Shown: in pieces, positions 28,430 to 61,540 of the stretch
How the letters are laid out: each line of letters opens with the position of its first letter
Position numbering within the stretch: position 1 is the first letter of the stretch
Origin: Wickerhamiella versatilis
Taxonomy: Eukaryota
Reading direction: 5' to 3'
NCBI GenBank assembly: GCA_030867685.1
Contig: JAQOWU010000008.1
Location: 1,984,001 to 2,048,000 of the forward strand
Length of the DNA stretch: 64,000 nucleotides
Made by a program: the position numbers and the translations under genes
The notes under the pieces: model-generated
Told to the model about the DNA's origin: nothing
The model's database searches: none
The model's input: the letters and a program-made list of their open reading frames with translations, nothing else

Positions 28430-28698
28430 ATTACCTCCTGCTTCTGTGCAAAATAACTGTTTTCAGACTAAGTAAATGGTAGGAGGTAGTATAATGTATA
28501 TATATACCCGGACGTGTGCGCTTATCAATCAGCTCCGCGGATGTTCCGTTATGTCATGAAGGCAAGATAGTTTCTTGTAGCTATTAATGCTATCAAGTAA
28601 AGAGAAAAGATATCTCTCTAATTCGGATCCCGCCCTAAGTAAGTAGCAGCAGCATCATGTTTTCATAAGTATAATTTTTTATAAGTCAGCGGATAAAA

Positions 28699-38209: not shown

Positions 38210-39484
38210 TCTCAGTGGGATAACGCCTCAAAAAAAAACTTATATAATCGACTCATATATTAGGGCGTAGCTCATTGGTTCTCAAGGTGCACTCATTCCT
38301 CTATAGAAAGCCGGCAAAACCTTATATATATAATAAAAAGCTATGTCCACTGATTGTTTTCTGATGTGCCTTTTTTGGCCTCCCATGTTAAGGATACTAC
38401 GAAATGAGGCTTACGATACCGGTATCGATAAGGCCATAGCGAAGTCAGGTTACGTAGTATTAAATTAATCGAGTCAATTATCTCAAATTTTAGGATGGCA
38501 TGATTCATTACATGGGTAGGCTTGCCTTGTATTTCGGCTTAAACGTGGTCGTTCCATATAAGTGCTAACGTATACCACTTGGTACAGTGGAGATCACGTT
38601 CTTAGCTGGCCCGTTCCGTGATATATTTTTAATAGCAGTAGTATCTAATCCGTGAATTCCTCTTGGTTGGAAATAACTAGCAAATTTTGCAAGTTCGCGA
38701 ATATCACGAAGATAATTTGGACTATATGACTATGTTGGTATCAAAATTCTTGCTATTATCTCTCCAGAGCTAATGGACGAGCTTTGCTGCGTGAATACGA
38801 GTGATTACATCTTATTATTGAGATACTCTACGACTTAGTTCAGCTTCAATAGATATTCCCAGCCCTTTATACTAACTTATTTGCTAGATTAGCAGAAGTA
38901 GAGAAGATAGTAAGGAACATTGAAATATTCACCATTGTCCAACCAGAAGGGCAGACCTGGAATTTGGGCTTAGGGCCACTCGCACCGAAAGTAAGTATCG
39001 TATTACTAGGTCATTCGGCGGTGTTTTATGGTCCTGTTTGCGGATCTTTCATTACTATCCCTCCCCGCTTATCTTATTCCTTAGTTAGTAACGTGTTCAG
39101 TCCCTTCGAAGTAGTGTACGATGAGGTTTATGGGTAGTAATACCGGTTTATTTCTTTATCCTCATGTCCTTCTCTTGAGCTCTCTTTTGTTCTCCTGATG
39201 CCAAGTATTACATGCTCCGATGCAAGAGTGTCACTTATGTTATCTAATTACTATGTACACTTTCTACAGATATCAGCTGAAGCAAGATGGATCAATCCAT
39301 CTTATTGTGTGAATGTTTACGATAAGTTTTTTTTTAATCAGGCAGGGAGTGTGTTCCCAAACAAGCGGATCTACACAGCCCGCACAGAGATCAGATTAAC
39401 GAAGATATGCATACATAAATAATAAAAATACGTTCTCTAATTTCCTAAATTTCGTAACTCACTATCTCATCACATATATAAAGG

Positions 39485-40558
39485 TTATCTCAAGTAGGGG
39501 AATAGTTCAGTGACCGTTCTCGTCAGATACTCCTCAGTATCAACGGCGAATCTTGTCACATCACCCTCCTCATAAGATCCAGCAGCTTGCAATCTCTTTC
39601 GTTGCATACGAAATCGGTCTTCCAGAATCTTCAATCTGTATTCCAGCCACTGATACCCAAGAACCTTCATATCTGATACCGCGGATGCGTTTCCAAGATG
39701 AGTACAGTCGTGAACGAAAGGATCGCGAGGCCGCAAGCTTGTCACCATTGCAATACGCTCGGAGCAATTACGTGCCCTGAGGGCCGCGTGTTTAATTCTT
39801 GAACCCTGCAGAAGTACTACTCTACCCATTGCTGGACCTGGGACAACAGCAGTACTTCCATCTTTCTTCATGACAGCCGTCTCACCTCCCTCCATACCTG
39901 TTGTATCTGAGACCATCAGAACAGCTACAAAGGGCACATAATCGTAATGCCAATCATCAACAGGACGGCTGTCGTACACACTAGGAGGGGTACGTTCCGA
40001 TGCCGCAAGAGGGAGGGTCGGTACATCAGACAGGTCTTTGACACCTTCCTTTCCTTTGGGTCCTAGCTGGATATTCGTATGTGCAATTTCATAGTCACAA
40101 ACTGGGACCAATTCAATACCGGCGGCCTTTGAAATTGCCTCCAAGACCTTTGGATTTTTCCAGGCATCATAGATAAACTTTGACTGAGTCGGTGCGAATC
40201 CCCGGACAACATAAGGCGCACGCTCCGAGCCATAGACATGGTTTTTTTGCACAGGTTCTGATAAAAGATCATTGCGCATCAGCCGAACTGCTTCATCTGT
40301 AAATAATCTGAAAGGCGCTACTGCTGCAATCTCGCTAATACCATCCTTAGCGTTATCGTAGCCGAAATCGCTTAATCTCAGTTTCCATTCTGGTTCTTCA
40401 ATAGCAAGATGTGTTTCAGGGTCAAATTCTACCTTGGTTGGCATATATTTCCATTTCTTTTCTGGGATTCCATAGGATACCTGAGGAGAGAGCTCCACAG
40501 AAGGCTCAAACAGTTGTTCAGGGAGGGGTGCTGCTTGCTGGGCTGTTGCCGAAGCCAT
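39485..40558 (-). CDS. Fe(II)/2-oxoglutarate dioxygenase-fold protein, function unknown
   Basis: WHYD (HxD), GGET, distal KH and ERIAMVTS (2OG-binding Arg) in DSBH order. Confidence 0.8.
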   Translation of the reverse strand: MASATAQQAAPLPEQLFEPSVELSPQVSYGIPEKKWKYMPTKVEFDPETHLAIEEPEWKLRLSDFGYDNAKDGISEIAAVAPFRLFTDEAVRLMRNDLLSEPVQKNHVYGSERAPYVVRGFAPTQSKFIYDAWKNPKVLEAISKAAGIELVPVCDYEIAHTNIQLGPKGKEGVKDLSDVPTLPLAASERTPPSVYDSRPVDDWHYDYVPFVAVLMVSDTTGMEGGETAVMKKDGSTAVVPGPAMGRVVLLQGSRIKHAALRARNCSERIAMVTSLRPRDPFVHDCTHLGNASAVSDMKVLGYQWLEYRLKILEDRFRMQRKRLQAAGSYEEGDVTRFAVDTEEYLTRTVTELFPYLR

Positions 40559-40643
40559 TGGTACTCAAATTCGACTTAGACTCGACTCAAAACCAGCGTG
40601 GGACTCCTTGCTTAAATATAATTCTCTGAAATTCGGTAACTGC

Positions 40644-40706
40644 CGGTTTTTGATAACAAACATTGCTGGCTGATAAGATTGATCAGCGGGACGGACCGGT
40701 TTTCGA
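40644..40706 (-). promoter_or_regulatory. Two TCRRANNCCG sites plus GATAAG upstream of the dioxygenase
   Basis: CGGTTTTTGA at 40644-40653, CGGTTTTCGA at 40697-40706 and GATAAG at 40672-40677. Confidence 0.65.
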
Positions 40707-41321
40707 ATCAGCGCGCATTAAATTCCTCATCTCAGGACAGATCAAGATGGCTAAGCCCATGGATACTTATATTACTTACTTCAATGCTATTTTCATAGAA
40801 TTTGTTTTTCTCATTTCATTTTTTTCGTATTCTCTACTGATCGATCTTGTGGAATGCCACACGGGTCTGGGTTAGGGTAAAGCATCAGTTGTGCTTCCAT
40901 TCAAAAGGCGACCGATCCCTATGTGCCAATCTAGTATAGTATAGTAATTCCAAACTGGAAACGCTCCTAGCATGTATTTTTCAGCTTCAATTAAAGAGGT
41001 TGTTGTTTCTAATTAAATAGAATACACTCCAGAACATTAATAGGGGATTTCGAACAAGTAGTCGGCAGTCGGGTATAGAACAGGGGGTACCACTTGCCTG
41101 TCGATAGCACCAATTCGTTCCGTAGAAAAAAAAATACATATTCTTACTTCATTTATATGTTTCCCTGTGACACTGAGAGGACTAGAAGAGGAAATTCAGT
41201 GATCGATCTAGTGCGTTTCCATCCAATAACCACGAACCACATTGTCTTGTGTTTGTTCAGATGATCAAAGAGTCCGTCATTTGTCAACGAGTTCTATTCG
41301 TATTTATATACTATATATGCA

Positions 41322-43316
41322 TTATATGCCAAAGTCCTGATCCAATGCTGTAGCCTGGGTTGGTGGTGTTGCATCGTCCCAGTTTGCCAGAATATTTTCA
41401 TGGAGCAGAAAATTCCATATACTATCACCGTTGTTCATATCAGGTGGATCAAAAAGTCCAAAAGGATCAGGTGCTCTTTGGCTGGGTTGGACATTGGCTA
41501 GAGTTACAGGTGAAGAGTATGTGTGTCCAGCCATTACATGCGGATTTTGAGGCCATTTTTCAAGATGTGGGGATTCCGGATGCATATTGCTTTTTCGCCT
41601 ATCTCGCTTCATGAACCGTTGGCATATCAGCTCTAGAGGCTTTGAGTATATATGCTGATCTTCTGGCGGTAGCTGAGCCATGGTTTGGGAAGCCTTATAT
41701 AGGATACTGACAATATCCTGCTGCTTCTGTCGGTTGGCATAAACACCCTTTGTCAACAAGGTCTTAGCCAAAAAGACCGATGCATGAAGCAATCTCGTAA
41801 TCCATTGAATTGGCGAGAATCTTAAGTCAACAGGAATATCGTCTGCTGATTCGTGTTGAATAATAAATACTGCTGCTTTTATTGCCATATTTAGGAATTC
41901 GCGGGATTCCTCAAAATGTAGCAATTTGTCTACAGATTTTTCCTGCCATGACATCAGAACCACCGAAAAGACGTATAGCTGAAAATGTCGGAATTCGAAC
42001 ATAGTGGTACGGTCTGACCAGGCAGTACCCTCGACAATATCACTATAGTCCGATTCCCACTTTTTAACAAGTTCATGGACAAGGGTTAATATTGTAATAT
42101 GGTGGCCAGAGGATACAAGCCTCTGAGTCTCCGTGCGTGATCGATATAGAGATCGGTTAGCCAAATGCAGTAGCTTCACAATGTCTAGACGCGCTCTATC
42201 AGATAAACTGCATTGTCGAATAGCAGATTCAGGAAATTCTTCCTCTGCTCCATGCAGCTGGTCAAGCATAGGCTGCTGACCGAGTCTGCAGGCTAGGAGG
42301 TGATCAGAGAAATGCAGAGCTATAGTAGTTTGAATATCATTCTTTAAAAGGCCTGTATAGCGGGCAATACGTACTGCTTGTCCCATTAACGGCCAGCAAA
42401 TTCTGGTGTGCCTCCTTAAAGCCTCACCAGGAGAGGAGTTATTTTCTAGTAAGGTACCAGGGAACCACTCGCACAAAGTAAGGACCCCAAAGATTAGAGA
42501 TCTTACGTTGCACTGAGGACATTCCCACATCAACTCACTAACCGTTCTTTGACAGTACTTCCACAACTTTTCCTGTAAATTCCTATTATCGTTCACGTCG
42601 AGGCACCGCGCACCTACAGTACAAACCACAGACAGGAGCGCAGGCTCAGCAGCTATTCTCGCAAGCTCTTGATATTCTGAAGGAATATAGGATGCGTAAA
42701 ACGGTGCGATTTCAGCAAAGAAGAATCCAACCAACCTGCACACTTCTTCCGTGGAAAGAATTCCATCGGCAACTATAGCCGAATCATGAACTGGTATTCT
42801 TTGCGTTGATAGCAAAGTGTTATTTGAATTTTCAATAGAAATAGCTCGTTTTTTTGACCTGGGTTCCACTTGCCTATAATCAAAACCTGTAGCTATTGTC
42901 TTACTCGGGATTCCTCTTTTTCTCTCAGACGACGCTTGATGTAGAATCTCAATCGCATCATTTGGCGTGTACATCTCATTTTTCAAAACAGTGCTTTCTG
43001 TTATAGGTGACATTGGTCTTGACTGTGGGGCAGTTCCCTCTGCGAGACGCAATCTATCAGCAGCTTCCCGTTCCCGCTTCTCTTTTCCGGCTAAAACATT
43101 GCCATAACCACCCCTTTTGTCAATATCAGGAATTTCACATATCAAGTCTTCTTCACGGCATCTCCGGCACGGTGCTTTGTCGCCGTCAAAATCGCACCTT
43201 GTCTTACGCTTTCTACAACTCAAACAGGCTTTTCGTGCTCTCTTTCTACGATGAAACTCATCATTTTCTTCCGATGTGCCCATAGACGCATATACTGGAG
43301 ATTCATACTCATTCAT
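41322..43316 (-). CDS. Zn(II)2Cys6 transcription factor (Aro80-like architecture)
   Basis: RARKACLSCRKRKTRCD..PCRRCREEDLIC followed by a middle homology region (LTLCEW, CWPLMGQAVR). First ATG at 43316. Confidence 0.92.
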   Translation of the reverse strand: MNEYESPVYASMGTSEENDEFHRRKRARKACLSCRKRKTRCDFDGDKAPCRRCREEDLICEIPDIDKRGGYGNVLAGKEKREREAADRLRLAEGTAPQSRPMSPITESTVLKNEMYTPNDAIEILHQASSERKRGIPSKTIATGFDYRQVEPRSKKRAISIENSNNTLLSTQRIPVHDSAIVADGILSTEEVCRLVGFFFAEIAPFYASYIPSEYQELARIAAEPALLSVVCTVGARCLDVNDNRNLQEKLWKYCQRTVSELMWECPQCNVRSLIFGVLTLCEWFPGTLLENNSSPGEALRRHTRICWPLMGQAVRIARYTGLLKNDIQTTIALHFSDHLLACRLGQQPMLDQLHGAEEEFPESAIRQCSLSDRARLDIVKLLHLANRSLYRSRTETQRLVSSGHHITILTLVHELVKKWESDYSDIVEGTAWSDRTTMFEFRHFQLYVFSVVLMSWQEKSVDKLLHFEESREFLNMAIKAAVFIIQHESADDIPVDLRFSPIQWITRLLHASVFLAKTLLTKGVYANRQKQQDIVSILYKASQTMAQLPPEDQHIYSKPLELICQRFMKRDRRKSNMHPESPHLEKWPQNPHVMAGHTYSSPVTLANVQPSQRAPDPFGLFDPPDMNNGDSIWNFLLHENILANWDDATPPTQATALDQDFGI

Positions 43317-43530
43317 CAATGTTTGAATCTTCTTAGGAGATAACACGATATTCCATTAGTAATTGCATCGGCTTTCCATTGGCCGGGACTTGGAGATAGA
43401 ACATGATCATCATGTAAGATGATTAAGAATTTTTCCTAAAGCCACTTTCCAATGACTGCTATTACATTGGATGTAAATATATTGCTTTTAGTCTATGGAA
43501 AATAAGTTTGTATTATTTCTGTTGTAAAAT

Positions 43531-44922
43531 CTACGCATCCTCCTTGTTAGACCTCTCTTTTGGCGAATGAGTCGAGACCCCAATTAATCCCTCTAATGAA
43601 ATATCACCAAGATTTTCTTCCATTATCACAGAATCATAACCAGCCAATTCCTCCTCCTTAGTTATTCTTAAACGTAGACCAGGAATCCAATTCATTAGCA
43701 ACAAGATAACTACCGTCATAACAAACGACCAAGCAGCTATGGAAACACAACCCGCAAGATTATATCCAAGCTGCACCCAGTGTCCGTCAATCCAGCCACC
43801 ATCTACTTCTGTAGCCCCGTCAAGCTTAGCCACCCAGTCTGCTCCAAATAAAGCAGTACAGATTCCTCCAACGAAACCCCCAATTCCATGGAGATTGAAC
43901 ACCTCAAGACCTTCATCAATGCCCACGAGCCGTGCAAAGCCGTCAGTAAGATTGCAGATTAGTGCAGTAACAATACCAATAACGATAGCAAAGTAGAAAG
44001 GTACAAAACCTGCTGCTGGGGTAATACCGACAAGTCCTGCAATGACTCCTTCACATGCAGCAATTATGGACCACCGGTGTCCATTACGCAAGTAGTGGAC
44101 TATTGAGTAAGTGAGCAAGCCAGATGAAGCAGCAAGATTGGTATTACAGAAGGCATAAGTTGAACGGACAGTGTCATTCAGAGCAGTCCCAGAATTGAAA
44201 AATAACCACCCGAAATATATCAATGAAGTCCCCATAAATACAAGTAACACATTGTGTGGGCGTACCTTAGGAATCATATTTTTTCCGGTGCCATCCTCGT
44301 TATGTCTTGGCCCAAGTACTAATGCATAGGCCAACGCTCCAAAGCCGGAGGCAATATGAACTGGAGAACCCCCAGCAAAATCCATGGTGCCCAGCTTGTA
44401 AAGCCACCCGTTCGCATTCCAGGTCCAATATGCCGCAAAATCGTAGACTATTATTGACCATATGCAAGCAAAAATAATGCTAGGGATAACCCTTGCTCTC
44501 TCGTTTCCACCACCGATCATGATACAGACAGTGGCGACACAAAAGTAGCATTGAAAAATCGAATAGACAGGTTCATTAAGCTCCCCAACAGAAGGGTCAA
44601 CACTAGTTTTTACGCTTTTCATTCCTCCATTCCCAAGGGTGCCAATCATTGAATTCCCAGTAACCGAGCTTACAAGAGAGTATCCTAGCAAATACCAGAT
44701 GATACTGACAGCACCCCATACAAAAAAGTTCATGAAAAGAAGCGAAATTGCACTTCTCTTTCTTGAAAGTCCTGCGTATAGTAACGCAATTCCCGGCAAG
44801 ATCAGCCACACACAACCGGTACCAACCTGAATATATACATCACTTGGACCATTGTACTGAGTATTCACATCAGTAACCATGGGGTTTGGCCCACTTGGGT
44901 TACTGGGGTCATACGTAGACAT
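43531..44922 (-). CDS. Amt/Mep ammonium (methylammonium) permease
   Basis: PGIALLYAGL, DFAGGSPVH, GWLFFN, GLVGITPAAGFV and VFNLHGIGG with both pore histidines retained. First ATG at 44922. Confidence 0.95.
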   Translation of the reverse strand: MSTYDPSNPSGPNPMVTDVNTQYNGPSDVYIQVGTGCVWLILPGIALLYAGLSRKRSAISLLFMNFFVWGAVSIIWYLLGYSLVSSVTGNSMIGTLGNGGMKSVKTSVDPSVGELNEPVYSIFQCYFCVATVCIMIGGGNERARVIPSIIFACIWSIIVYDFAAYWTWNANGWLYKLGTMDFAGGSPVHIASGFGALAYALVLGPRHNEDGTGKNMIPKVRPHNVLLVFMGTSLIYFGWLFFNSGTALNDTVRSTYAFCNTNLAASSGLLTYSIVHYLRNGHRWSIIAACEGVIAGLVGITPAAGFVPFYFAIVIGIVTALICNLTDGFARLVGIDEGLEVFNLHGIGGFVGGICTALFGADWVAKLDGATEVDGGWIDGHWVQLGYNLAGCVSIAAWSFVMTVVILLLMNWIPGLRLRITKEEELAGYDSVIMEENLGDISLEGLIGVSTHSPKERSNKEDA

Positions 44923-45287
44923 CTCCACGTGAGTAGGATTAGGTCATCTCAAGTTTGCAGAAATGAATATATATATATATATTAGAGGTAAGGGTTTTGA
45001 GTTGAAGCGATAAGAGATGCAACTTTGGAAGGCCTGTAAAAGGGTCGTAGTGGACTTTAGGACAATACTGGACTTTGAAGCGAATTAAAGAATTCACATA
45101 ATTTTCGTGTGTAAGATGTAGGTGAGTTCTGCGAGACAGATTGCTAGCCAATTTTTTTTTCATGAATACAGTTTCTTTTTTTCAATTGTGAGGTTTTTGA
45201 CAAAGCGTAGCACGTCCTACGGGTCTGGTTCTATACGATAATCAAAGTATAAGATATCGACAAAGTACATGGAGCAATGATACTCAG

Positions 45288-45503
45288 CGGGATTCGATTT
45301 GTCAGACACGGGGGGGACCGTGCATCGATAACAAGGTGTCTTTTTTTTTGATTTTTTTACACATGAAATCAGAGGAATATTACCAAGACACCATAAAAAA
45401 AATTCCATTTTCTTCGTCTTCTGCGCGATTTCGCATTTGAAGCGGCCTATACTTTTCAATAATTATTATTATAATCTTCAGGGCTTATCGTCTTCGAACA
45501 CCG
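45288..45503. promoter_or_regulatory. TCRRANNCCG sites plus GATA in the divergent Mep/EutQ promoter
   Basis: CGGGATTCGA at 45288-45297, TCGAACACCG at 45494-45503, near-match TCAGACACGG at 45302-45311 and CTTATC at 45484-45489. Confidence 0.6.
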
Positions 45504-45586
45504 ACTGTACTGCTTCGGCGGTAAGGGTTATAATTTCGTCGGGCATATAAGTTTGGCCAGTTACATTTATTTTGTTACCTTCAAAA

Positions 45587-45946
45587 ATGCCGATGAAATA
45601 CAAGCCTTCTGCTGAGGGAGCAGCTGTTAAGCCTCCTCAGATCCCCTCTCCTGGTAACAACTCCTTCTTGGGTGATATTTTTACCTCTGATGCACCTAAA
45701 GACAAGCAGATATCCTGTGGTTTCTTCAAACAGGAGAAAGGAGAACCATTGGTCTACACTTATGACTACGATGAGATGAAGGTATTTCTAGAGGTCGAGG
45801 GTGAGTACACACTCTCAGACGAAACCGGTTACAAGGTAAAGGTATCTCCTGGTGATGTTTTCTACTTCAACAATGGAAGTACCATTACTTTCGAGACCAC
45901 TGGATATGGTCTCGCATTCTTTACTGGGTTGCGCCCTACTATGTAG
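45587..45946 (+). CDS. EutQ-like cupin
   Basis: ISCGFF..EKG..LVYTYDYDEMK..EGE..SDETG..PGDVFYF..GSTITF, the EutQ/cupin_3 pattern. Confidence 0.85.
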   Translation: MPMKYKPSAEGAAVKPPQIPSPGNNSFLGDIFTSDAPKDKQISCGFFKQEKGEPLVYTYDYDEMKVFLEVEGEYTLSDETGYKVKVSPGDVFYFNNGSTITFETTGYGLAFFTGLRPTM

Positions 45947-46210
45947 ACTTTATCACATGATAGCCTGAGATATAAAACTATATAGAGCGGATAGTATTAA
46001 TATTCAACTCTTAGAATTTTTGTTATGAGCAGAGTTCTTAAATTCCCTAAATTTGAAATGTGATGGTTGAATTACAGAAGTTCCTTGGCTATGCTGAGAT
46101 TCCCCAGGATTCGCTAAGTTCTCATGGTTACATTAATACTATATAGGTAGACTGCCAGGTATCTTTTGTTATCGAGGCAGATTTTGTTTCTTTATGATAA
46201 TAATAATAAT

Positions 46211-47281
46211 CTATGAGCGCAAGTAAGCTAGCACAGGAGCGCCCCATATATGGCGTCCTTTATACTGTGCTGTGTCTTCAGGCCACGCTTCGAGAGCATC
46301 AGCACAAGTGTTACCCAATCCTTCCCGCTTCAGCTCTGCTAAAGAGTACATATATGTGCGGATGGAGAACCCCAAAAATCCTGTAACTGGAAGCCGGAAG
46401 AGTACTTGCCGCTCCAAACGTACAAATACAGAATTCTCAAAATCCAAATTTTTTACGTCAATTTCTCCATCAAATGAAAAATTACCAGAGGAATATAGAT
46501 CATTAACCTCTCCTAGCATGACACCGAAAGTCACTCTTTGCGTAAATGGCCCCGGCACAATGCGATGGAAGTAACGGTTCATAGATTTCTGGAGTCTTTC
46601 CTTATACTGAGGAACGGGTATGTGGATGTCGGTCAACTTTAGTCCCACCTTTTCGCGCCATTCGAAGCCAAGACCAGCAAGTCCAGAGCTAGCCTGTAAA
46701 CGGTACTCTTCAACACTTGGGTCATATTCGAGCACCATAATGTCTTCCTCAAGATTCACAGCGAGGATACGGAGAAGATCACGGGGATCAGAATTTTTTT
46801 CAGAGTAACGTGGCAGCTTACCACCTGTAATGGTATTGATTATCATATTTCCCTCTGGTTCAAAATATTTTGGATATCGTTGAGTGAGTGTATCCATAGC
46901 AAAGTCATACATTTCTTGGACAGCTTCAGTAGTTCTATAAGTACCATTGACCATGCAGGTAGTATCAGGATGCTCATTCATAATACGTCTATGATTTGCC
47001 ATGGCCTGTAAATAGACGCTATCAATTTTCAACCAGTCCTGACGCTTGGAGCGTGTCACGTTCATCGTAACGTGATAAGTAGATTTAAAAGGGCGATATT
47101 TGTCGGGGTCTTCAGTACTCCAATCGAAGCCTGGGGGTACTGGTTCGATTTTACCCCAATCAGTCTTGGACTGAAACCGCGACTTATTTCCTCCAGAAAT
47201 GAAGCGATTCCAAAGCGCAATGACTACAATGAATAGAACTACAAGGATGCCCACAAGATATGGGGACATGGAGAAAGTCAT
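46211..47281 (-). CDS. DUF3445 / heme-dependent oxidative N-demethylase alpha-subunit-like protein, N-terminal membrane anchor (paralog 1)
   Basis: TM segment (YLVGILVVLFIVVIALW), YRPFK..HVTM, LEEDIMVL, KVGLKLTDIHIPVPQY and VRLERQVLFRLP.TG...FSIRTY. Confidence 0.88.
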   Translation of the reverse strand: MTFSMSPYLVGILVVLFIVVIALWNRFISGGNKSRFQSKTDWGKIEPVPPGFDWSTEDPDKYRPFKSTYHVTMNVTRSKRQDWLKIDSVYLQAMANHRRIMNEHPDTTCMVNGTYRTTEAVQEMYDFAMDTLTQRYPKYFEPEGNMIINTITGGKLPRYSEKNSDPRDLLRILAVNLEEDIMVLEYDPSVEEYRLQASSGLAGLGFEWREKVGLKLTDIHIPVPQYKERLQKSMNRYFHRIVPGPFTQRVTFGVMLGEVNDLYSSGNFSFDGEIDVKNLDFENSVFVRLERQVLFRLPVTGFLGFSIRTYMYSLAELKREGLGNTCADALEAWPEDTAQYKGRHIWGAPVLAYLRS

Positions 47282-47358
47282 CTCTGTTTTCTCCCGTCTG
47301 TGCGAGAGAATTTTATCAGCAAAGGGTCTGTTTATAGATATGACCGGGTTTATTACAT

Positions 47359-47625
47359 GCGTTGTCAGCCAAATCCCGACGAAATGTCGAACCCCGCGTT
47401 GTCAGCATGCGTATCGTCAAACACCGAAACAAGGTACTTTGATGAAACAGTTTCTACGCAAATAGACAGTTCAAATGAGATTTGTGGTTTTAGAGAAGGA
47501 TAATATGACTTAATTTGGAGAAATAATAGAAATACAGAGTGGATGGATCACGCTATCCAAAGGCATGATAGATGAACGCCTCCGTGGTTGGGGAGATAAC
47601 TAATCTGCGATAAGGTCAAAAGCCG
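47359..47625. promoter_or_regulatory. Bidirectional promoter of the DUF3445 pair: three TCRRANNCCG sites, an 11-bp direct repeat and GATA sites
   Basis: TCGAACCCCG 47387-47396, TCAAACACCG 47417-47426, TCAAAAGCCG 47616-47625; GCGTTGTCAGC at 47359 and 47396; GATAAG 47609-47614. Confidence 0.65.
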
Positions 47626-47676
47626 GGTGAGTTATATACAGACCTAGTTTCCGATGGTGTGTGTTGTGTTTGCGCA

Positions 47677-48789: not shown

Positions 48790-49130
48790 AAAAATGTCTT
48801 TTTTTGCTAACTTGTAACTGCATGGCAGCCCGAGTAAATGTTTATTTAGTGTTCTTATGAATCTAAGCACGCGCATATTTAATGCCTTGTTCCTTTTTAT
48901 TTTTTTTGGTGGATTCACTCAGGTTTTGTCGCTTAGGAGTTCTAGTAGCTGACTGCTTCCTAATGGCTAGATTACGCATTTGTCTAACAAAACTTGTCAA
49001 ATAGGCTACTTTCGAGATGCGTCCAAGAACAAAAAAGGTAACAAAAAACAAGAGTACCACTTATAATTTGACTGCGATAGTCATGCAACTAGTAATATTT
49101 TATCTAGAAATAAGCTAAACAGAGTTCGGT

Positions 49131-51143
49131 TCATAGACGCTGCTCACCATGGCAGCTCTTCACTTCCACAGAGCGATTGAATTGTTGATTTGACGTAGGT
49201 ACGTCCATTGCTGGGTTTTCAGAGAAAAAGCCATAAGGATGAAGGCCGACAACAATTCGTTCCATGGGCATGATAGGAAAGTCTTCGATTCTGGGATAGT
49301 GCGTGAGACCAAAAGAGTGCCACAATACCACATCATCGTTACGCACATTTTCATTACGCTTAACCGCATCGGAACAGCCACCGGTTTCTTCTGCGCTTTG
49401 GTTTGTCCAATTTCCTCCGGCATAAAATTCCTGATCTTTGTGCTTCGTAACCCAGAAGTGATGTGTAGCGTATTTCGCACGCGAGCGAGCAACCGTACCC
49501 TCTGGGGCCATGAGAAGGGCTGACGGGAAAGGTGCAAGCTTATAACCAACAGGCTCCATAGTAATGGGATTGATCTTGTTCTCATTGACGATCTTAATGA
49601 AGCGGTTTTTAGACTGGTCACAATCAAGATACGAAGAGCGCTCGACATATGTAGGGTCATTGTAGAATCCAGTACCATATGGGTTTAGAGAATCCCGCGG
49701 TGGATGCTTGGTATCGCATACCACCACAGAATTAGAATGACCGTCAATAGCAGGGTCAACACGCATTGAGAAAACGTGCTGGTGGCCAGCAGCCAATACT
49801 GAAGGCGCTACAACAGTGCCCCACTTGCTTTTCTTACCAGGGTCAATGTATTGTGTAGAAATTACACCTGTTGCTCTAACCTCGAGTTCAACGCATCCTA
49901 CCTGGTCGAAGTGCCAGTTGAAAATGTATTCGTAGTTAGCGACAGTGATGACAGTTTGAAGGATCAAGATACGGCGTCTTACTACTCTGCCGACCCCAGT
50001 GCGGAAATTAGCATGCTTAAGAAGAATACCATCATCTTGTTCATGCATGCATACGACATTTTTGCGTTGCTCAACATTTCCGTCTGCATGGGTCAGGACA
50101 CCATCAAAATACTTGATAACACCGAGACAGTCGCAGCCAAGACCTAGAGAGTTGGCCGAGAATCCGGCACCGTAATCACCGAGATCAAATGCCTGTTTAC
50201 GGTGAAGTGGAGGACGAGGATCACTATAAGGCACAGTCATCTCGCTCACAGACAAACGATAGAAAAGCATCCGACCGTCATAACGTACATCACCAATAAC
50301 AAGCCCTTCGCGAGGATTGAACATCACACGGAAGCTCCACTTCTGCCAATTAACAAGACTGCCATCCACACTAAAAGATGGCCCATTTGGCTGAATCACA
50401 TTGTATGGCTGCAAGTCTGTACGCATTCCTGTTGATCGCAATTCAGGCATGTATTCAACTCCCTCGAAATCTTCGATAATGGAACCCTTACTATTACGAG
50501 TGTTATAGTTGATCTCCCCATTAGTGTCATCTCCCTCATTACCCGTTGCACACCAATCAATTCGCTCCAGTTTCTGCTCGAACGAGTCAACAACTGGCAC
50601 GAATGGTAATGGCAGAGCATAAATGTTTGATTCCTCATGTCTGTTTTTTGGATTGCGCATAAACATGAGGAACATAACATATCGTGGTTTTGTAACCTCC
50701 GAATCGCAGCCGTATACCCAAGGGTCAGCTGCCACCAAAGGAATCAAATCACCTGTTATGCCACACTGCTTGAGCGCATCAAGCACCTTTGGCTCCTTCA
50801 ACATCATTTGTTCGAGAGTTCCTCCCTCGATCATGTCTATCATAGCATGTTTTCCTACGGGGAAAGACTCCTGCTTGATAATAACCTGAGTGTCAAGGTT
50901 AATCCAAGCCTGCTCCGCACGCTTGTCCGATAAAATCAAGTAAACCGCATATGCAATACGCGGAGGCGGAGGGATCTTATGACCAGAATGCTCGGCATCG
51001 AGGTATTTCACCATGTATTTTTTGGGTGGTTCTTCGGTTTGAATTCCCTTGATGTGCAAAGCTTTACCACTGTTTGAATCTCTGAGAATCTTAACGGCAT
51101 TTTTGGCTTCCGCCACCGTAAGCTGGTCGAGGGGATGTACCAT
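49131..51143 (-). CDS. Copper amine oxidase (TPQ), methylamine-oxidase-like, probably peroxisomal
   Basis: HPLD, AFDLGDYG (catalytic Asp), TVANYEY (TPQ), HQH and THYP copper ligands, EDFPIMP; C-terminal QRL. Confidence 0.95.
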   Translation of the reverse strand: MVHPLDQLTVAEAKNAVKILRDSNSGKALHIKGIQTEEPPKKYMVKYLDAEHSGHKIPPPPRIAYAVYLILSDKRAEQAWINLDTQVIIKQESFPVGKHAMIDMIEGGTLEQMMLKEPKVLDALKQCGITGDLIPLVAADPWVYGCDSEVTKPRYVMFLMFMRNPKNRHEESNIYALPLPFVPVVDSFEQKLERIDWCATGNEGDDTNGEINYNTRNSKGSIIEDFEGVEYMPELRSTGMRTDLQPYNVIQPNGPSFSVDGSLVNWQKWSFRVMFNPREGLVIGDVRYDGRMLFYRLSVSEMTVPYSDPRPPLHRKQAFDLGDYGAGFSANSLGLGCDCLGVIKYFDGVLTHADGNVEQRKNVVCMHEQDDGILLKHANFRTGVGRVVRRRILILQTVITVANYEYIFNWHFDQVGCVELEVRATGVISTQYIDPGKKSKWGTVVAPSVLAAGHQHVFSMRVDPAIDGHSNSVVVCDTKHPPRDSLNPYGTGFYNDPTYVERSSYLDCDQSKNRFIKIVNENKINPITMEPVGYKLAPFPSALLMAPEGTVARSRAKYATHHFWVTKHKDQEFYAGGNWTNQSAEETGGCSDAVKRNENVRNDDVVLWHSFGLTHYPRIEDFPIMPMERIVVGLHPYGFFSENPAMDVPTSNQQFNRSVEVKSCHGEQRL

Positions 51144-51192
51144 GGCTAACTATTTGGTGCTTAGAAGCTTTAAATAGGGCGGGTTCCTATCT

Positions 51193-51278
51193 CTTATCAA
51201 CAGTTGTAAGCGGGAGTTGGCTGTCAGAAGCCGATCGGCTTCCGATAGGTGTTCGATCCATGTCCGGTGTCTGACAAA
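51193..51278. promoter_or_regulatory. Amine oxidase promoter: 16-bp palindrome, three TCRRANNCCG sites and GATA
   Basis: GAAGCCGATCGGCTTC at 51227-51242; motif sites at 51224-51233 (+), 51236-51245 (-) and 51265-51274 (-); CTTATC at 51193-51198. Confidence 0.7.
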
Positions 51279-51348
51279 CGATAAATCAATCAATCTCCTA
51301 ACCATACATTATATAAAACTGGCATTTTTAGTTTATTATCCGTACTTA

Positions 51349-52869
51349 CTACAACTTCGTAAACAAACCACTGCAAGCACCTTTTGTGTGCTGTATTAGG
51401 GTGCTCTTAGTTCTCAAGTAAGCCTTTATACCTTCTTCTCCATTTTCTAGGCCGATACCACTCATCTTCCAGCCCCCCACAGGCATCTCTGCAGGTGACT
51501 CACCCCATGTGTTGATCCAAGTAATCCCCGCTTCCAGTTTTTGGATGACCATAGTGGCCAATGCGGCATCTGAAGTTACAACCCCGGCCGCCAGACCCAT
51601 TGGTGTATCATTAGCTCGGGCAACAACTTTCTGAAGCCAATCATCACCATTTGTACTGTAGGGTAGGATGCACATTACCGGTCCAAATATTTCTTCACGT
51701 ACCACGCGCATGTTATCAGCACAGTTAGTGAATACAACCGGTGGCACCCAGAACCCACCAGATGTAGGCTGAACACTCTGAGCGTCAGCAGATCCATCGT
51801 AGAGAACTTTCGCCCTGTCAATATCGCGGCCATGGCGAATATACATCTTGACTTTAGCCTGATGCGCGGAGCTCACAACAGGTCCGAAGTTAGTATCTGC
51901 TTCTTGTGGCATTCCCATTCTAATACCACCTCTACAGCGGCTGATGATAGCTTCTTCAACAGGTCCAAGTAAAACATCAGGGACGAAAACTCTTGTTCCG
52001 TTGGTACACACCTGACCAGTGGAAAAAAAATTGGCAGCCATGGCTACATCTGCTGCTTCCTCTATGTCAGCGTCGGGCAGCACAACAAGAGGGCTCTTAC
52101 CACCTAATTCCATGGTAACCCCTTTCATACCACCCGCAGCGGAACTGGCGACCTTGCTGCCTGTGCTCACTTGTCCGGTGAAACTTACTTTTGCAATGCT
52201 GGGATGACTTACAAGAGGTGCCCCCACACTCATTCCATCACCGTAAACCACATTAAATACACCAGCTGGTACACCAGCTTCGATATATATCTCGGCAAGG
52301 GTGTTAGCATGAAGAGGTGTAACCTCACTTGGTTTATAGACCATACAGTTACCAGCTGCTAGACAAGGGGCAGATTTCCAAAGAGCGATTTGGATAGGAT
52401 AGTTCCAGGCACCGATGCCTGCGCAAACTCCTAGTGGCTCGTTGGTCGTGTATACTGATGCATCTTCCCTCAAACGGGTATATGATCCTGGGAGTCCACC
52501 AGCTACCTGATGGGCATAGTACTCTAAAACATCTGCTCCTGTGATAATATCCACGGTCGAGGTCTCGGAATATGGCTTTCCCGTGTCAAGTGTTTCGGTG
52601 AGTGCCAACTCATTATTGCGCTCACGAAGTATAGAAACGGCACGAAGCAATATTTCTGCTCGTTTAGAAGCTGGCGTATTGGACCATTGAGAGAATGCAG
52701 TCTGCGCAACTGATATGGTCTGCTCCAGCTCTGCGGGTGTTGTGGTGTAAACAGTTGCTAGAGGATTCCCGGTTGCTGGATCATAAGAGTGGAATTTCAC
52801 GGAAGAAGATGAAACTGGCCTCTGAGGCTTTCCCGAATGGAAAGTATAGATCTCAGAGGAGAACGTCAT
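51349..52869 (-). CDS. Betaine aldehyde dehydrogenase (BetB/ALDH9-like)
   Basis: GIGAWNYPIQIALWKSAPCLAAGN, KPSEVTPL, MELGGKSP, GQVCTNGTRVFV and WGESPAEMPVGG; C-terminal TKL. First ATG at 52869. Confidence 0.9.
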   Translation of the reverse strand: MTFSSEIYTFHSGKPQRPVSSSSVKFHSYDPATGNPLATVYTTTPAELEQTISVAQTAFSQWSNTPASKRAEILLRAVSILRERNNELALTETLDTGKPYSETSTVDIITGADVLEYYAHQVAGGLPGSYTRLREDASVYTTNEPLGVCAGIGAWNYPIQIALWKSAPCLAAGNCMVYKPSEVTPLHANTLAEIYIEAGVPAGVFNVVYGDGMSVGAPLVSHPSIAKVSFTGQVSTGSKVASSAAGGMKGVTMELGGKSPLVVLPDADIEEAADVAMAANFFSTGQVCTNGTRVFVPDVLLGPVEEAIISRCRGGIRMGMPQEADTNFGPVVSSAHQAKVKMYIRHGRDIDRAKVLYDGSADAQSVQPTSGGFWVPPVVFTNCADNMRVVREEIFGPVMCILPYSTNGDDWLQKVVARANDTPMGLAAGVVTSDAALATMVIQKLEAGITWINTWGESPAEMPVGGWKMSGIGLENGEEGIKAYLRTKSTLIQHTKGACSGLFTKL

Positions 52870-53269
52870 GGTCAAACAAAAATTCGAATTCCCGATTAGA
52901 AAGCGTTTACCGTAATAACGTAGATTGCTCGCGGCCCTTGCCCTTATCTTTCTTTTACAGGTTTCTCATCAAGTCATATTGGCTATTCGCCAAAAACTGA
53001 TTCGTGGCGTATATTTCCAGGCCAAGGAAAGGGGAGCAGTATTACCCGGCAAGAAATATCGACTGTGGTAAAGCCTCTTATTCACTGTTCATGTCATAGG
53101 AATTAAATGCGTTGATTCAAACATATGTAGTCGTATAAGCCCAAAGCTGGTGGTCAATAGCCAGCAAAGCTGTGACTTGTCCGTGCCCGATATCATTAAA
53201 ACCCGTCGAACCCTTACCCTTTATCGGTATATATTTTTCTGTGCGATACTCTCTAATCCTCCCAGAACT

Positions 53270-54889
53270 ATGACTACCGAGATTTTGCCTGAAAACGCTA
53301 GCTACGACTATATCATTGTTGGGGGAGGTACTGCTGGTTGCGTGATTGCCGAACGTTTATCTGCGTACCTGCCAGAACGCAAGATTCTTCTTATCGAAGC
53401 AGGGCCCTCTGACTTCCATATTGGCCAAGTTTTGCAACTCAGAGAGTGGCTTGGTCTGCTTGGAAGCGAGTACGACTATGATTATGGCACAGTTGAGCAG
53501 CCTTTTGGTAACAGCAACATCAGACACTCCAGAGCTAAGGTTTTGGGGGGCTGCTCGTCTCATAACACGTTGATCTCGTTCCGTCCGCTCAAGTATGACA
53601 TGGATAGGTGGGTCAAAGATGGATGCAAAGGTTGGGATTTCTCAACTGTAATGCGTCTCTGTGATAAGCTGCGTAACACCGTCCAGCCAGTTCACGCTCG
53701 TCATCGCAACCAGCTCTGTAAAGACTGGGTCCAATCTTGCTCGAGCGCTTTGGGAATCCCCATTCTGGATGACTTCAATGCAGGAATTAAGAAGTCCGGA
53801 AAACTTGAGGAAGGTGTTGGCTTTCTTTCGATCTCGTATAACCCTGATGATGGGAAGCGCAGCAGTGCCTCTGTCGCTTACATCCACCCTATCTTGAGAG
53901 GCGAGGAAAAACGACCTAATTTAACTGTGCTAACAGAGGCTTGGGTATCAAAACTTCACGTTGAGAATGATGTTGCTACGGGCATTGATGTGACACTTAA
54001 ATCAGGCCAGAAGCGCTTCTTGAAGCCCGGTAAGGAGATCGTTCTCTGCGCAGGTGCTATTGATACGCCTCGTCTGATGCTGCTTTCAGGCATTGGTCCT
54101 AAGGCCGAGCTTGAGAAGGTAGGAATTCCTGTTGTCAAGGACTTGCCAGGTGTAGGCGAAAATTTGCTTGATCATCCAGAGTCCATCATCATGTGGGAAC
54201 TAAGTAAACCGGTGCCCCCTAACCAGACTACGATGGATTCGGATGCTGCTATTTTCCTTCGCCGCGAGCCCACCAATGCGGCTGGTGCTGGTGACGGTGA
54301 TGCTGATATTATGATGCATTGTTACCAGATCCCGTTTACGCTCAACACTCAGCGGCTTGGCTACCCTGATGTACCAGATGGATATGCCTTTTGTATGACG
54401 CCTAATATTCCGCGTCCTCATTCCCGTGGTCGTCTATACCTTACCAGTTCGGATCCCAGTGTTAAGCCTGCTCTGGACTTCCGTTACTTCACTGACCCTG
54501 AGGGTTATGATGCAGCCACTCTTGTAGCCGGGATCAAGGCTGCTCGTAAGGTAGCTCAGCAAGCTCCTTTCCGTGACTGGATCAAGCAGGAGGTAGCTCC
54601 TGGTCCTAAAGTGCAAACCGACGAGGAAATCAGCGAATATGCTCGTCGTGCTCATCACACGGTATATCATCCAGCAGGAACTACTAAGATGGGTGACGTA
54701 TATCGCGATGAACTTGCTGTTGTGGATCCAGAACTTAAGGTTAAAGGCATCAAGAACCTGCGGATCGCAGATGCTGGTGTTTTCCCTGAAATGACCACAG
54801 TAAACCCCATGCTAACGGTTTTGTCCATTGGTGAGCGCGCTGCTGAGCTCATGGCGTCGAACGATTGGAGTCCAGATGCTCGTCTGTAG
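53270..54889 (+). CDS. Choline oxidase (CodA-type GMC flavoprotein), peroxisomal
   Basis: GGGTAG, HSRAKVLGGCSSHN (flavinylation His of Arthrobacter-type choline oxidase), DHPE, TVYHPAGT and TVNP; PTS1 ARL. First ATG at 53270. Confidence 0.92.
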   Translation: MTTEILPENASYDYIIVGGGTAGCVIAERLSAYLPERKILLIEAGPSDFHIGQVLQLREWLGLLGSEYDYDYGTVEQPFGNSNIRHSRAKVLGGCSSHNTLISFRPLKYDMDRWVKDGCKGWDFSTVMRLCDKLRNTVQPVHARHRNQLCKDWVQSCSSALGIPILDDFNAGIKKSGKLEEGVGFLSISYNPDDGKRSSASVAYIHPILRGEEKRPNLTVLTEAWVSKLHVENDVATGIDVTLKSGQKRFLKPGKEIVLCAGAIDTPRLMLLSGIGPKAELEKVGIPVVKDLPGVGENLLDHPESIIMWELSKPVPPNQTTMDSDAAIFLRREPTNAAGAGDGDADIMMHCYQIPFTLNTQRLGYPDVPDGYAFCMTPNIPRPHSRGRLYLTSSDPSVKPALDFRYFTDPEGYDAATLVAGIKAARKVAQQAPFRDWIKQEVAPGPKVQTDEEISEYARRAHHTVYHPAGTTKMGDVYRDELAVVDPELKVKGIKNLRIADAGVFPEMTTVNPMLTVLSIGERAAELMASNDWSPDARL

Positions 54890-55391
54890 ACTCTGATCTG
54901 GACATTCCTGTAAATTTAAATGGCTCCAGTAGTCTGACTATTTTAATTTTACAAACATTTTGAGTATTAAACAATAATTAAATCAAATGCAAAATTTAAT
55001 CTCAGGGGGTTGGTGCACCATATGTAAGATCCATTCCTAACGCTAAGGGCAGCGGTATGTAGTAATCCAATACGTCAACTCGAATACCAATCACAGGGTT
55101 GATCCACATATTACTAACATGACAAATTACTAATAATGATGGGTGAGAAATTTTTCATGGGGAGAGAAGTGAAATTTGCAAAGATGTTTAAATCTTCAGC
55201 CTTGTAATTTTTGCGTCGAGTTGTGCAGCTGGTGATTCGGGTGGGTTATAGTATTGGGGTCACCTATAAGCACCAGTTACATAATATCACCGGCATTATT
55301 AGCTTAGTTGTGACATAATATCCTTTTCAGCAGACATTACAGTATTTAAGCTCGCTGATGTACGCATCGAAAAGTTTTATTTCGGGTGAAA

Positions 55392-57032
55392 ATGACCGCA
55401 TTAAAGCAAGTGCCCAAGGAAACTGGCTATGGTAAAAAGAATGATTCTGAATCTGAATCAATTCTTTACGACAGGTTTCGGCGGAGTCAAGAATCCAGTG
55501 AGGGGTTATTGGCAGGTAACGAGCGTCTTGGTGAATTAGGGTACAAACCAGAGTTGAAAAGGGAATTCACGTACTTTTCTGCCTTCTCCTTCGCCGTGTC
55601 AGTCTCCGGTTTATTTGGCACTATAGCCACAACTTTTACTTATCCGCTCATGGCTGGTGATTCAGCGTGTGTGGTGTGGGCTTGGGCCATAGGTGGTGTG
55701 GGGTGTCTGTGTATAGCTTATTCTGTGGCTGAGCTTGTCAGTGCGTACCCAACCTCTGGTGGACTTTATTACGCATGCAGTAAAGTCTTCCCAAAGAAAT
55801 GGGCCCCGTTCATGTGTTGGGTGGATGGATGGGTGAATCTTCTTGGACAGATAGCAGGGGTTGCCTCAAGTGATTATGGTGCTGCACAAATCATTCTTGC
55901 TGCAGGACAAGTTGGAACGGATTTCAAGTACAACCCCACAACCAACCATGTAGTGGGTGTGATGGCTGGTATTCTAGTCGTGCAGGGCATGATAAGTTGT
56001 ATGCCAACTCGTTACATTGAAAAATTCACAAAATTCTACGTAGTATTTCATTTTGGTGCGTTGTTTGCGGGTGCAATAGCCTTACTGGCAAAGACTAAAC
56101 CGAAGTTCGACGCCTCATATGTGTTCACTCATGTGGAGCAACATAACAATTGGAACCCTCGTGGATTTTCGTTTCTTTTCGGATTCCTGAGCGTTGCTTG
56201 GACAATGACAGATTACGATGCCACTGCACATATCTGTGAGGAGATGTCTGATCCAGAGCGAAAAGCGCCTTGGGCCATTTCGATGGCAATGACTTTTACT
56301 TATGTTCTTGGCTTCCTGTATAACATTGTCCTTTGTTTTGCCATGAAATTGCCGGAATCACTTACCCAGGGTGAAGACTCAATTAAATACCTTCTAAACT
56401 CGGACCAGCCGGTAGTGATGATGTATATGTCACTTGGAAAAGGGGGAGCAGTTACATTCGCGGTGTTCATGTTTATTGTCATTAACTTCCTTGGCCTTAG
56501 TGCATTACAAGCAGCTAGCCGCACGATGTGGGCTCAAGCTCGCGATCATATGTACCCTGGCAGTTCTGCTCTTCTGTATCATGTTAACCGGCTGACAAAG
56601 ACCCCGGTGAACTGTGTGGTGTTCTGTACTATCCTCTGCATTGCAATAAATTTAATTGCATTGGGAAGTCAGGAGACTATCACTGCAATTTTCAATGTGG
56701 CCGCTATTGCTCTCGATTGGTCCTATTGCTGGCCTATCATGGGAAAAATGATGTTCCCTAATTTATTCAAGCCTGGTCCTTGGCACTTAGGTCCAGCCTC
56801 ATTTTTTATAAACTTCTATGCTGTTGCGTGGACAAGTTTCGTAACTATTATTTTCTTTTTCCCCACAGAAAGGCCTGTTACGAAAAATAATATGAACTAC
56901 GCTGTAGTATTTTTTGTGTTTATTATTACGGCATCAGTCGTATGTTGGTTCTCTGGTGGATCCAAGGTTTACAAAGGTCCCTCAGCAACTGCGCCTAAGG
57001 AAGAGGATGAAGTTCGCGGTAAGACCGATTAA
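55392..57032 (+). CDS. APC-superfamily ACT permease (HNM1/UGA4/TPO5-like; choline/amine/GABA)
   Basis: LGYKPELKREF, AELVSAYPTSGGLY, WTMTDYDATAHICEE, PGPWHLG and NMNYA. Confidence 0.88.
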   Translation: MTALKQVPKETGYGKKNDSESESILYDRFRRSQESSEGLLAGNERLGELGYKPELKREFTYFSAFSFAVSVSGLFGTIATTFTYPLMAGDSACVVWAWAIGGVGCLCIAYSVAELVSAYPTSGGLYYACSKVFPKKWAPFMCWVDGWVNLLGQIAGVASSDYGAAQIILAAGQVGTDFKYNPTTNHVVGVMAGILVVQGMISCMPTRYIEKFTKFYVVFHFGALFAGAIALLAKTKPKFDASYVFTHVEQHNNWNPRGFSFLFGFLSVAWTMTDYDATAHICEEMSDPERKAPWAISMAMTFTYVLGFLYNIVLCFAMKLPESLTQGEDSIKYLLNSDQPVVMMYMSLGKGGAVTFAVFMFIVINFLGLSALQAASRTMWAQARDHMYPGSSALLYHVNRLTKTPVNCVVFCTILCIAINLIALGSQETITAIFNVAAIALDWSYCWPIMGKMMFPNLFKPGPWHLGPASFFINFYAVAWTSFVTIIFFFPTERPVTKNNMNYAVVFFVFIITASVVCWFSGGSKVYKGPSATAPKEEDEVRGKTD

Positions 57033-61482: not shown

Positions 61483-61540
61483 ATGATGCGATAGTTTCGT
61501 AAGCACCACGCGGCGTATTGATGACCGCGCCTCAACCAAT

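Follow-up and report, generated by a model that had tools for sequence, protein, structure and literature searches.

A ten-gene cluster in the yeast Wickerhamiella versatilis as a candidate for choline and methylated-amine nitrogen catabolism

Ten contiguous genes at positions 39485-57032 of a 64,000-nucleotide stretch of Wickerhamiella versatilis DNA (assembly GCA_030867685.1, contig JAQOWU010000008.1, positions 1,984,001 to 2,048,000 of the forward strand; hereafter the window) are tentatively read here, with somewhat less than even confidence, as a catabolic cluster that scavenges nitrogen from choline and methylated amines, composed of two co-inherited modules and leading from glycine betaine through trimethylamine (TMA), then dimethylamine (DMA), then monomethylamine (MMA) to ammonia. 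In the first module, a permease, a choline oxidase (CodA) and a betaine aldehyde dehydrogenase (BADH) would import choline or a related onium compound and oxidize it to glycine betaine. In the second, whose role we infer throughout, an Fe(II)/2-oxoglutarate (2OG) oxygenase, two haem proteins of the DUF3445 family (A and B) anchored in the endoplasmic reticulum (ER), a copper amine oxidase, an Amt transporter, a small cupin and a Zn2Cys6 transcription factor would remove the N-substituents level by level and release ammonia. The favoured route gives every gene of the cluster a role.

An initial annotation of the window, made from the sequence letters, had named these genes and seen no housekeeping gene among them. 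Ten ATG-to-stop open reading frames (ORFs) coincide exactly with the genes as it had drawn them, flanked on both sides by housekeeping or unrelated genes, and the cluster is real and more than chance. The gene labels hold as well. Nine of the ten genes score above curated Pfam cut-offs, and the exception, the first gene (39485-40558, minus strand), is identified by an invariant residue triad and its predicted fold.

From choline to glycine betaine

Conversion of choline to glycine betaine by CodA and BADH, as the initial annotation had proposed, is well supported by comparison of the predicted proteins. Against the Arthrobacter enzyme 2jbv, a choline oxidase, CodA scores 415.9 bits, compared with 244.5 bits for alcohol oxidase, the enzyme type that comes next. 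The residues that we take to form the active site of 2jbv (His99, presumed to carry the flavin link, Glu312, His351, Val464, His466 and Asn510) are all conserved, and Ser101 is replaced by Thr. Many Pezizomycotina proteins that bear the name choline oxidase (CodA) at their source share 74-79% identity with the yeast protein. BADH passes the NCBIfam equivalog NF009725 (639.6 bits, cut-off 593) and stays below the cut-off of TIGR01804 (547.3 bits against 668.6); its best matches in the PDB are BADHs, including 2wme (E 3e-157). The permease that would feed the pair scores 500.7 bits with TIGR00907, below the cut-off of 598.3, and its nearest Atlas cluster carries the automatic name gamma-aminobutyric acid (GABA)-specific permease; it belongs to the fungal amino-acid/choline/GABA permease group, and its substrate is left at the level of that group.

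As a separate observation, CodA is 73% identical to a choline oxidase of the basidiomycete Vanrija, and for the 2OG and DUF3445 proteins next to it, identity to named fungi outside their close relatives is no higher than 30-42%. The high identity of CodA to distant fungi may reflect constraint of great strength or else a transfer event.

In Aspergillus fumigatus, badA (AFUA_8G04080) and codA (AFUA_8G04090) adjoin, and a role in nutrition during nitrogen starvation was proposed for the pair (PMC4551469, citing Lambou 2013). The same two enzymes are adjacent there and here, whereas in W. versatilis they sit in a yeast-type intronless genome and are joined to a permease and seven more genes. The codA-badA part is known biology of filamentous fungi and is less expected in a yeast, glycine-choline pathways having been said to "appear to be absent" from budding yeasts (Linder 2019, PMC7033051). 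The initial annotation knew of no described cluster with this content. That stands for the full set, no such ten-gene cluster having been found described in a full-text literature search that left most subscription journals outside, but it does not extend to the codA-badA pair. As far as the literature searched goes, the extension beyond codA-badA is new.

Candidate enzymes from betaine to ammonia

The accepted route in yeasts runs from choline through TMA, DMA and MMA to ammonia (Linder 2017, PMC5816127). The TMA and DMA mono-oxygenases are described there as two distinct microsomal (ER) activities, P450-like and sensitive to carbon monoxide (CO), with their enzymology credited to Green and Large 1983/84 and Fattakhova 1991. 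Their genes were unidentified in 2017; deletion of two candidate CYP genes in Scheffersomyces stipitis is reported as without effect, and Linder proposed a different enzyme family for the two steps (PMC5816127). A survey of CYP genes (PMC6723986) makes no mention of amines. Judged by sequence and model, the anchored DUF3445 paralogues fit the two microsomal CO-sensitive activities and are good candidates for them. This assignment is our own inference and was not found in the literature; within the same journals, full-text search returned neither a function for fungal DUF3445 or 'HRQ' proteins nor genes for the yeast TMA and DMA enzymes.

The initial annotation had presented the DUF3445 pair as relatives of the haem-containing dimethylamine N-demethylase of bacteria, and family scores, a sequence match and a fold match all bear this out. 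Both proteins score well above the PF11927 cut-off of 25 bits (Table 1), they are 38% identical to each other, and their genes are divergently transcribed. By sequence, DUF3445-A matches the solved alpha subunit of HODM, the haem-dependent oxidative N-demethylase of bacteria, weakly (E 2.5e-5, about 20% identity). Its predicted model (pLDDT 86.6), in which a helix spans residues 7-32, superimposes on HODM alpha (5lth and 5lte) with a TM-score of 0.71-0.76 and E 2e-20 in Foldseek, the next matches being LOV/PAS domains at E >8e-3. His220, within the motif DIHxPVPxY, is invariant in 20 of 20 sequences, aligns with the His-x-Pro-Val-Pro ('HsPVP') of 5lte, and is taken to be the putative haem ligand. 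Both yeast proteins begin with a hydrophobic helix, and such a segment is present in 69 of the 99 family matches of at least 330 amino acids. A maximum-likelihood tree built from 37 members of the family places A with three orthologues (100/100) and B with P0037 (100/100; 60% identity), both lying within one 11-row clade (97/91). Because each groups separately with its own orthologues, the two are old paralogues kept side by side.

The bacterial enzyme, HODM or dimethylamine mono-oxygenase DmmABC(D), shares PF11927, the fold and the conserved HxPVP histidine with the yeast pair. It consists of several subunits, among them reductase and folate-binding partners, and is soluble; the yeast proteins, each encoded by a single gene, carry a membrane anchor, have no partner genes nearby and share about 20% identity with it. 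Dmm converts DMA to MMA and is required for growth on methylated amines (PMC5520151); a bacterial DUF3445 gene raised salt tolerance in Escherichia coli, with no mechanism given (PMC5809485). HMMER found 1450 representatives of the family at E <=0.001, the sole name among them being 'HRQ family protein 2'; a word-index search with DUF3445-A returned six proteins, far below the HMMER search, and is uninformative on distribution. Members occur in Cyberlindnera jadinii ('HRQ2'), Ogataea philodendri, Scheffersomyces spartinae, Hyphopichia burtonii, Candida jiufengensis, Priceomyces carsonii and Magnusiomyces paraingens. The classical enzymology was done with Candida utilis, whose sexual form is C. 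jadinii. A few members are longer than the usual 340-420 amino acids, namely P0329 and P0330 (of the C. jadinii cluster) and P0340 (Pseudogymnoascus), with lengths of 491 and 713 amino acids; these may be fusions or gene-model errors.

The 2OG gene is the one cluster member without a Pfam match above cut-off. Its best family, 2OG-FeII_Oxy_3, scores 17.7 bits (E 0.0074) against a cut-off of 27, and no match was found for the protein among NCBIfam models or PDB sequences. In an alignment with 23 fungal relatives, however, His204-x-Asp206, His257 and Arg268 are invariant in all 24 sequences, and the AlphaFold (AF2) model (pLDDT 84) has the double-stranded beta-helix fold of 2OG oxygenases, with 151 PDB matches at E <=0.001, the 21 best rows all being Fe/2OG-type or putative oxygenases (HalB, BesD, P4H, SnoN). 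With the invariant residues and the fold taken together, the label given to the first gene is correct. The best folds are the halogenases or hydroxylases of free amino acids (lysine or ornithine) HalB, BesD and 'Hydrox' (E 1e-7 to 1e-5, the best at about 1e-7), followed by prolyl 4-hydroxylase. Like them, the yeast protein would be a small-molecule oxygenase; it differs from them in its low identity (10-16%, TM-score 0.36-0.57) and in a long extra C-terminal helical region at residues 297-352. Its HxD triad is presumably of the hydroxylase rather than the halogenase type.

The copper amine oxidase is complete, and its translation contains ANYEY, which matches the N-Y-D/E-Y motif that we take to mark the topaquinone tyrosine. 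The C-termini of CodA (-ARL), BADH (-TKL) and the amine oxidase (-QRL) resemble what we assume to be the peroxisomal C-terminal motif, and may be peroxisomal signals.

From these parts the following route is proposed. The 2OG oxygenase would hydroxylate the carbon next to the betaine nitrogen, and the product would decay to TMA and glyoxylate. The DUF3445 paralogues would act as TMA and DMA mono-oxygenases that are membrane-bound, depend on NAD(P)H and are sensitive to CO, drawing electrons probably from a general microsomal reductase, since neither a reductase nor a folate-binding subunit of HODM is encoded close by. The amine oxidase would turn methylamine into ammonia, formaldehyde and H2O2, and Amt would keep or recapture ammonium or methylammonium. 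Control would lie with the Zn2Cys6 factor, a candidate pathway regulator, and with GATA-type nitrogen catabolite control. Compared with the yeast route through Cmo1, the TMA and DMA mono-oxygenases and Amo1 or Amo2, the cluster would likewise take off alkyl groups in series and finish with a copper amine oxidase, and the two membrane-bound CO-sensitive mono-oxygenases needed there could be supplied here by two anchored haem paralogues. It differs in that the window holds no Rieske Cmo1, in that entry would be by way of betaine rather than by direct cleavage of choline, and in that the amine oxidase is AMO2-like, not Amo1-like.

Expression, linkage and the alternative readings

Several observations weigh against the favoured reading, and they concern its chemistry as well as the expression and linkage of the genes. 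To our knowledge, cleavage of betaine to TMA by a 2OG enzyme has no precedent. The similarity of DUF3445-A to HODM is so low that the substrate should not be transferred from one to the other, and no HODM reductase or folate-binding partner domain was found in the 39 window ORFs scanned. The amine oxidase, too, appears to be of the AMO2 class and not of the peroxisomal Amo1 type. With 545.6 bits, 3loy, an amine oxidase from Hansenula, is its best match in the PDB, the peroxisomal methylamine oxidase scoring about 403 bits; the first residue of the cluster protein corresponds to residue 1 of 3loy and residue 22 of 3sx1, with no N-terminal extension, and RNA-seq reads gave no splice joints to an upstream exon. 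In Amo1 the N-terminal extension carries the peroxisomal PTS2 signal, and the AMO2 class prefers bulkier amines, while loss of AMO2 in S. stipitis delays growth on methylamine (PMC5816127). The initial annotation's step from methylamine to ammonia therefore keeps its copper amine oxidase and is weakened, not removed, by the AMO2 type and the missing peroxisomal-type extension.

Betaine might instead be demethylated to dimethylglycine by the 2OG enzyme, to sarcosine by DUF3445-A and to glycine by DUF3445-B, with formaldehyde released at each step, glycine passing to general metabolism and the amine oxidase and Amt being accessory or serving other amines. Three oxidative enzymes would then match three demethylations, of which the first has parallels: 2OG oxygenases are known to demethylate trimethylammonium groups, and JmjC enzymes act on trimethyl-lysine. 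CodA and BADH would produce the betaine at the same locus, the amine oxidase differs from the methylamine-oxidase type, and some budding yeasts use N-methylated glycines as nitrogen source through a pathway and enzymes that were unknown in 2019 (PMC7033051). This outcome nevertheless appears unlikely. Under it, the amine oxidase and Amt would lack a function, the sole characterized PF11927 enzyme (5lte/5lth) acts on dimethylamine, and yeast biochemistry offers no precedent, whereas microsomal TMA and DMA mono-oxygenases are documented (PMC5816127). The gene content accommodates about equally well a cleavage of betaine to TMA and its demethylation to glycine in steps.

Far less probable is a course in which choline itself is demethylated to ethanolamine by the 2OG enzyme and then the two DUF3445 proteins, the amine oxidase yields glycolaldehyde and ammonia, the aldehyde dehydrogenase oxidizes the aldehyde, and the EutQ-like cupin belongs to the same theme. 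It would provide one oxidative enzyme for each level of N-substitution and a place for the cupin, and an AMO2-type enzyme suits amines larger than methylamine. However, the score of the aldehyde dehydrogenase lies above the cut-off of the BADH equivalog, the active-site residues of choline oxidase are retained in the GMC enzyme, so that CodA and BADH would form a competing branch, and the match of the cupin to EutQ is weak (25.3 bits; PDB E 0.007).

Expression was read over 37501-57500 from four public RNA-seq runs under the same species label, three polyA runs of one study and one of a second, with growth conditions unknown and both read orientations summed. No splice joints occur in this interval, and the intronless gene models stand where covered. 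Table 2 gives the depths. The permease, CodA, BADH and Amt are expressed, while the 2OG gene and both DUF3445 genes are silent and the amine oxidase is low. Because of this split, the ten genes are not one constitutive regulon, and co-expression across the cluster is not seen in these four runs, the sole RNA data. Their depths neither show nor exclude joint induction by methylated amines. All four runs come from another strain of the species, as they carry fixed differences from the window at 40 listed sites and 42 more, mostly transitions and present in every read. Read ends resembling template switching mark transcript starts for Amt (44940/44945), the cupin (45577), BADH (52885), CodA (53264) and the permease (55379), 6-23 nucleotides upstream of the respective ATGs. 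The 5' leaders at this locus are unusually short, and a further oligo-tailed read end was seen at 38229.

Table 2. RNA-seq read depth of the cluster genes and one flanking gene
Gene	X14-X16	X11	All four runs	Remark
Amt	122-200x	41-59x		highest of the cluster in X14-X16
CodA	67-120x	267-348x		
BADH	31-70x	155-183x		
Permease	44-113x	about 270x (up to 272x)		
Zn2Cys6 factor			about 6-29x	
Amine oxidase			about 6-9x	
Cupin (bin)			2-12x	
DUF3445-A			<=2.4x	
DUF3445-B			<=3.2x	
2OG gene			<=0.4x	
RLI1 flank	34-39x	362x		for scale

The promoters give a hint of shared regulation. GATAAG, which we take to be the nitrogen-catabolite GATA site, occurs six times, in five of the seven cluster promoters (3143 bp). 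The whole window carries 37 copies (Poisson p 0.011 for the promoters against it) and is itself not enriched (35.3 expected from shuffles), and other intergenic DNA has one copy in 6677 bp (Fisher p 0.005). As the motif was chosen out of a k-mer screen, in which nothing else convincing appeared, this is weak support. No common CGG-Nx-CCG site runs across the cluster promoters. CGG-N6-CCG was considered as the site of the Zn2Cys6 factor and rejected, with two copies upstream of the 2OG gene, one between Amt and the cupin, and none in the other promoters.

Linkage in other genomes was read from identical longest-contig values of orthologue matches (Table 3), not from gene order or DNA. It suggests that the betaine-forming module and the 2OG/DUF3445 module lie on one contig in three other assemblies, and that in a fourth a 2OG gene lies no more than 19 kb from a DUF3445 gene; no other coincidence of longest-contig value was found among the matches listed. 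Farther away, metagenomes contain 79 loci with DUF3445 relatives (26-38% identity; 40 loci of at least 8 kb), and tblastn at E <=1e-8 found none of the other eight cluster proteins within 10 kb of them, relaxation to E <=1e-3 adding one weak permease match at locus L049. This set leaves out JGI protein P0040 (44% identity), which is encoded on a contig of 153 kb. The linkage is not general for the DUF3445 family. Conservation of the linkage, which the initial annotation had named as a check, would extend to three or four assemblies, judged by shared contig values, and to none of the 79 distant loci.

Table 3. Orthologue matches sharing a longest-contig value in other assemblies
Longest contig	DUF3445 protein	2OG protein	CodA
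289993 bp	A, P0002 (81%)	P0008 (75%)	P0205 (90%)
86585 bp	A, P0004 (65%)	P0011 (59%)	P0213 (79%)
38169 bp	A, P0003 (66%)		P0209 (78%)
19033 bp	B-like, P0037	P0015 (56%)	

Expression and linkage together bear on a third alternative, in which two or three independent modules merely lie side by side: one from choline to betaine, as known from filamentous fungi, with permease, CodA and BADH; one for general nitrogen uptake and amines, with Amt and the amine oxidase; and one with the 2OG and DUF3445 enzymes acting on unrelated substrates such as other N- or O-methylated compounds or on xenobiotics. The decoupled expression in all four runs, the absence of partners at the 79 metagenome loci and of a common Zn2Cys6-type site, and the self-sufficiency of codA-badA in A. 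fumigatus (PMC4551469) speak for it, and the linkage among related yeasts could be plain inherited synteny. It is nevertheless held to be somewhat unlikely. Ten consecutive genes share a nitrogen and amine theme with nothing unrelated between them, CodA, 2OG and DUF3445 orthologues appear to remain on the same contigs at a divergence level of 59-66% protein identity, a 2OG and a DUF3445 gene apparently share one 19-kb contig, and GATAAG is enriched in the cluster promoters. The route through TMA to ammonia is retained as the preferred reading.

The locus and the gaps in yeast nitrogen metabolism

The features of the locus are collected in Table 1. A Pfam scan of the 26 further window ORFs of at least 150 amino acids revealed ordinary housekeeping genes and one allantoicase, with three ORFs lacking a Pfam family. 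None of the 26 is a Rieske oxygenase, BHMT, or sarcosine or dimethylglycine oxidase, and the earlier statement that the 64-kb window lacks a Rieske choline mono-oxygenase, BHMT and sarcosine oxidase is upheld. The small cupin has only weak PDB matches (E 0.007), and Amt passes TIGR00836 (356.8 bits, cut-off 343.3).

Table 1. Features of the cluster and its flanks
Feature	Position	Strand	Details
RLI1-type ABC protein	36344-38209		flank
Fe(II)/2-oxoglutarate oxygenase, fungal family without a characterized member	39485-40558	-	357 aa
Zn2Cys6 transcription factor	41322-43316	-	664 aa; Zn_clus residues 29-68, 30.5 bits
Amt/Mep ammonium (methylammonium) transporter	43531-44922	-	463 aa; PF00909 Ammonium_transp 329.6 bits
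Small single-domain cupin, EutQ-like	45587-45946	+	119 aa; Cupin_3 29.7 bits, EutQ 25.3 bits
DUF3445/HODM-alpha-like haem protein A (predicted), N-terminal membrane anchor	46211-47281	-	356 aa; PF11927 235.5 bits
Promoter between the divergent DUF3445 pair	47282-47676		395 bp; one GATAAG at 47609
DUF3445/HODM-alpha-like haem protein B (predicted), N-terminal membrane anchor	47677-48789	+	370 aa; PF11927 221.4 bits
Copper amine oxidase, AMO2-like	49131-51143	-	670 aa; Cu_amine_oxid PF01179 519.6 bits
Betaine aldehyde dehydrogenase (BADH)	51349-52869	-	506 aa; Aldedh
Divergent promoter BADH/choline oxidase	52870-53269		400 bp; starts 52885(-), 53264(+); GATAAG at 52943
Choline oxidase CodA	53270-54889	+	539 aa; GMC_oxred_N PF00732 111.5 bits and GMC_oxred_C PF05199 131.7 bits, both above cut-off
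APC-superfamily permease, fungal amino-acid/choline/GABA type	55392-57032	+	546 aa; AA_permease_2 211.4 bits
Serine carboxypeptidase	57660-59324		flank
Kinase	59713-61584		flank

The allantoicase gene (27410-28429, minus strand), which carries two Allantoicase repeats (E 9e-102), is another nitrogen-catabolic gene on the stretch. It is situated 11 kb upstream of the cluster, from which housekeeping genes separate it, and a GATAAG occurs at 28521, upstream of the gene (promoter about 28430-28698). Between the RLI1-type gene and the 2OG gene, a gap of 1.27 kb (38210-39484) contains no ORF of more than 74 amino acids and nearly no RNA coverage, and carries three GATAAG copies, at 38427, 39068 and 39321. 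The three ORFs with no Pfam match at E <=1e-5 are 8695-10050 (plus strand, 451 amino acids), 22856-23557 (minus strand, 233 amino acids) and 61541-62920 (plus strand, 459 amino acids); the first and last have no Pfam family even at E 10, and the last shares 44 bp with the end of the kinase ORF, which lies on the opposite strand. A tRNA scan of the window found none.

The cluster touches two gaps stated in print for yeast nitrogen metabolism, the genes for TMA and DMA demethylation (2017) and the use of betaine, dimethylglycine and sarcosine (2019). Its three uncharacterized oxygenase genes, set beside enzymes of known function, provide short candidate lists for both. In its most complete form, which we regard as unlikely to hold in every part, the proposal would make the DUF3445 pair the yeast TMA and DMA mono-oxygenases, as non-P450 haem enzymes of PAS ancestry served by a general microsomal reductase, and would join them to 2OG cleavage of the betaine C-N bond to TMA and glyoxylate and to CodA, BADH and the amine oxidase, giving a eukaryotic, aerobic pathway that takes choline all the way to ammonia without a Rieske Cmo1. 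Should the demethylation to glycine prove true instead, it would answer Linder's open question on the use of N-methylated glycines. Methylated amines and betaine are abundant nitrogen sources, and the enzymes that act on them matter for nitrogen cycling. If the DUF3445 assignment is true, a large fungal family would gain a function, and a PAS-type haem enzyme would be doing P450-like work on the ER membrane.

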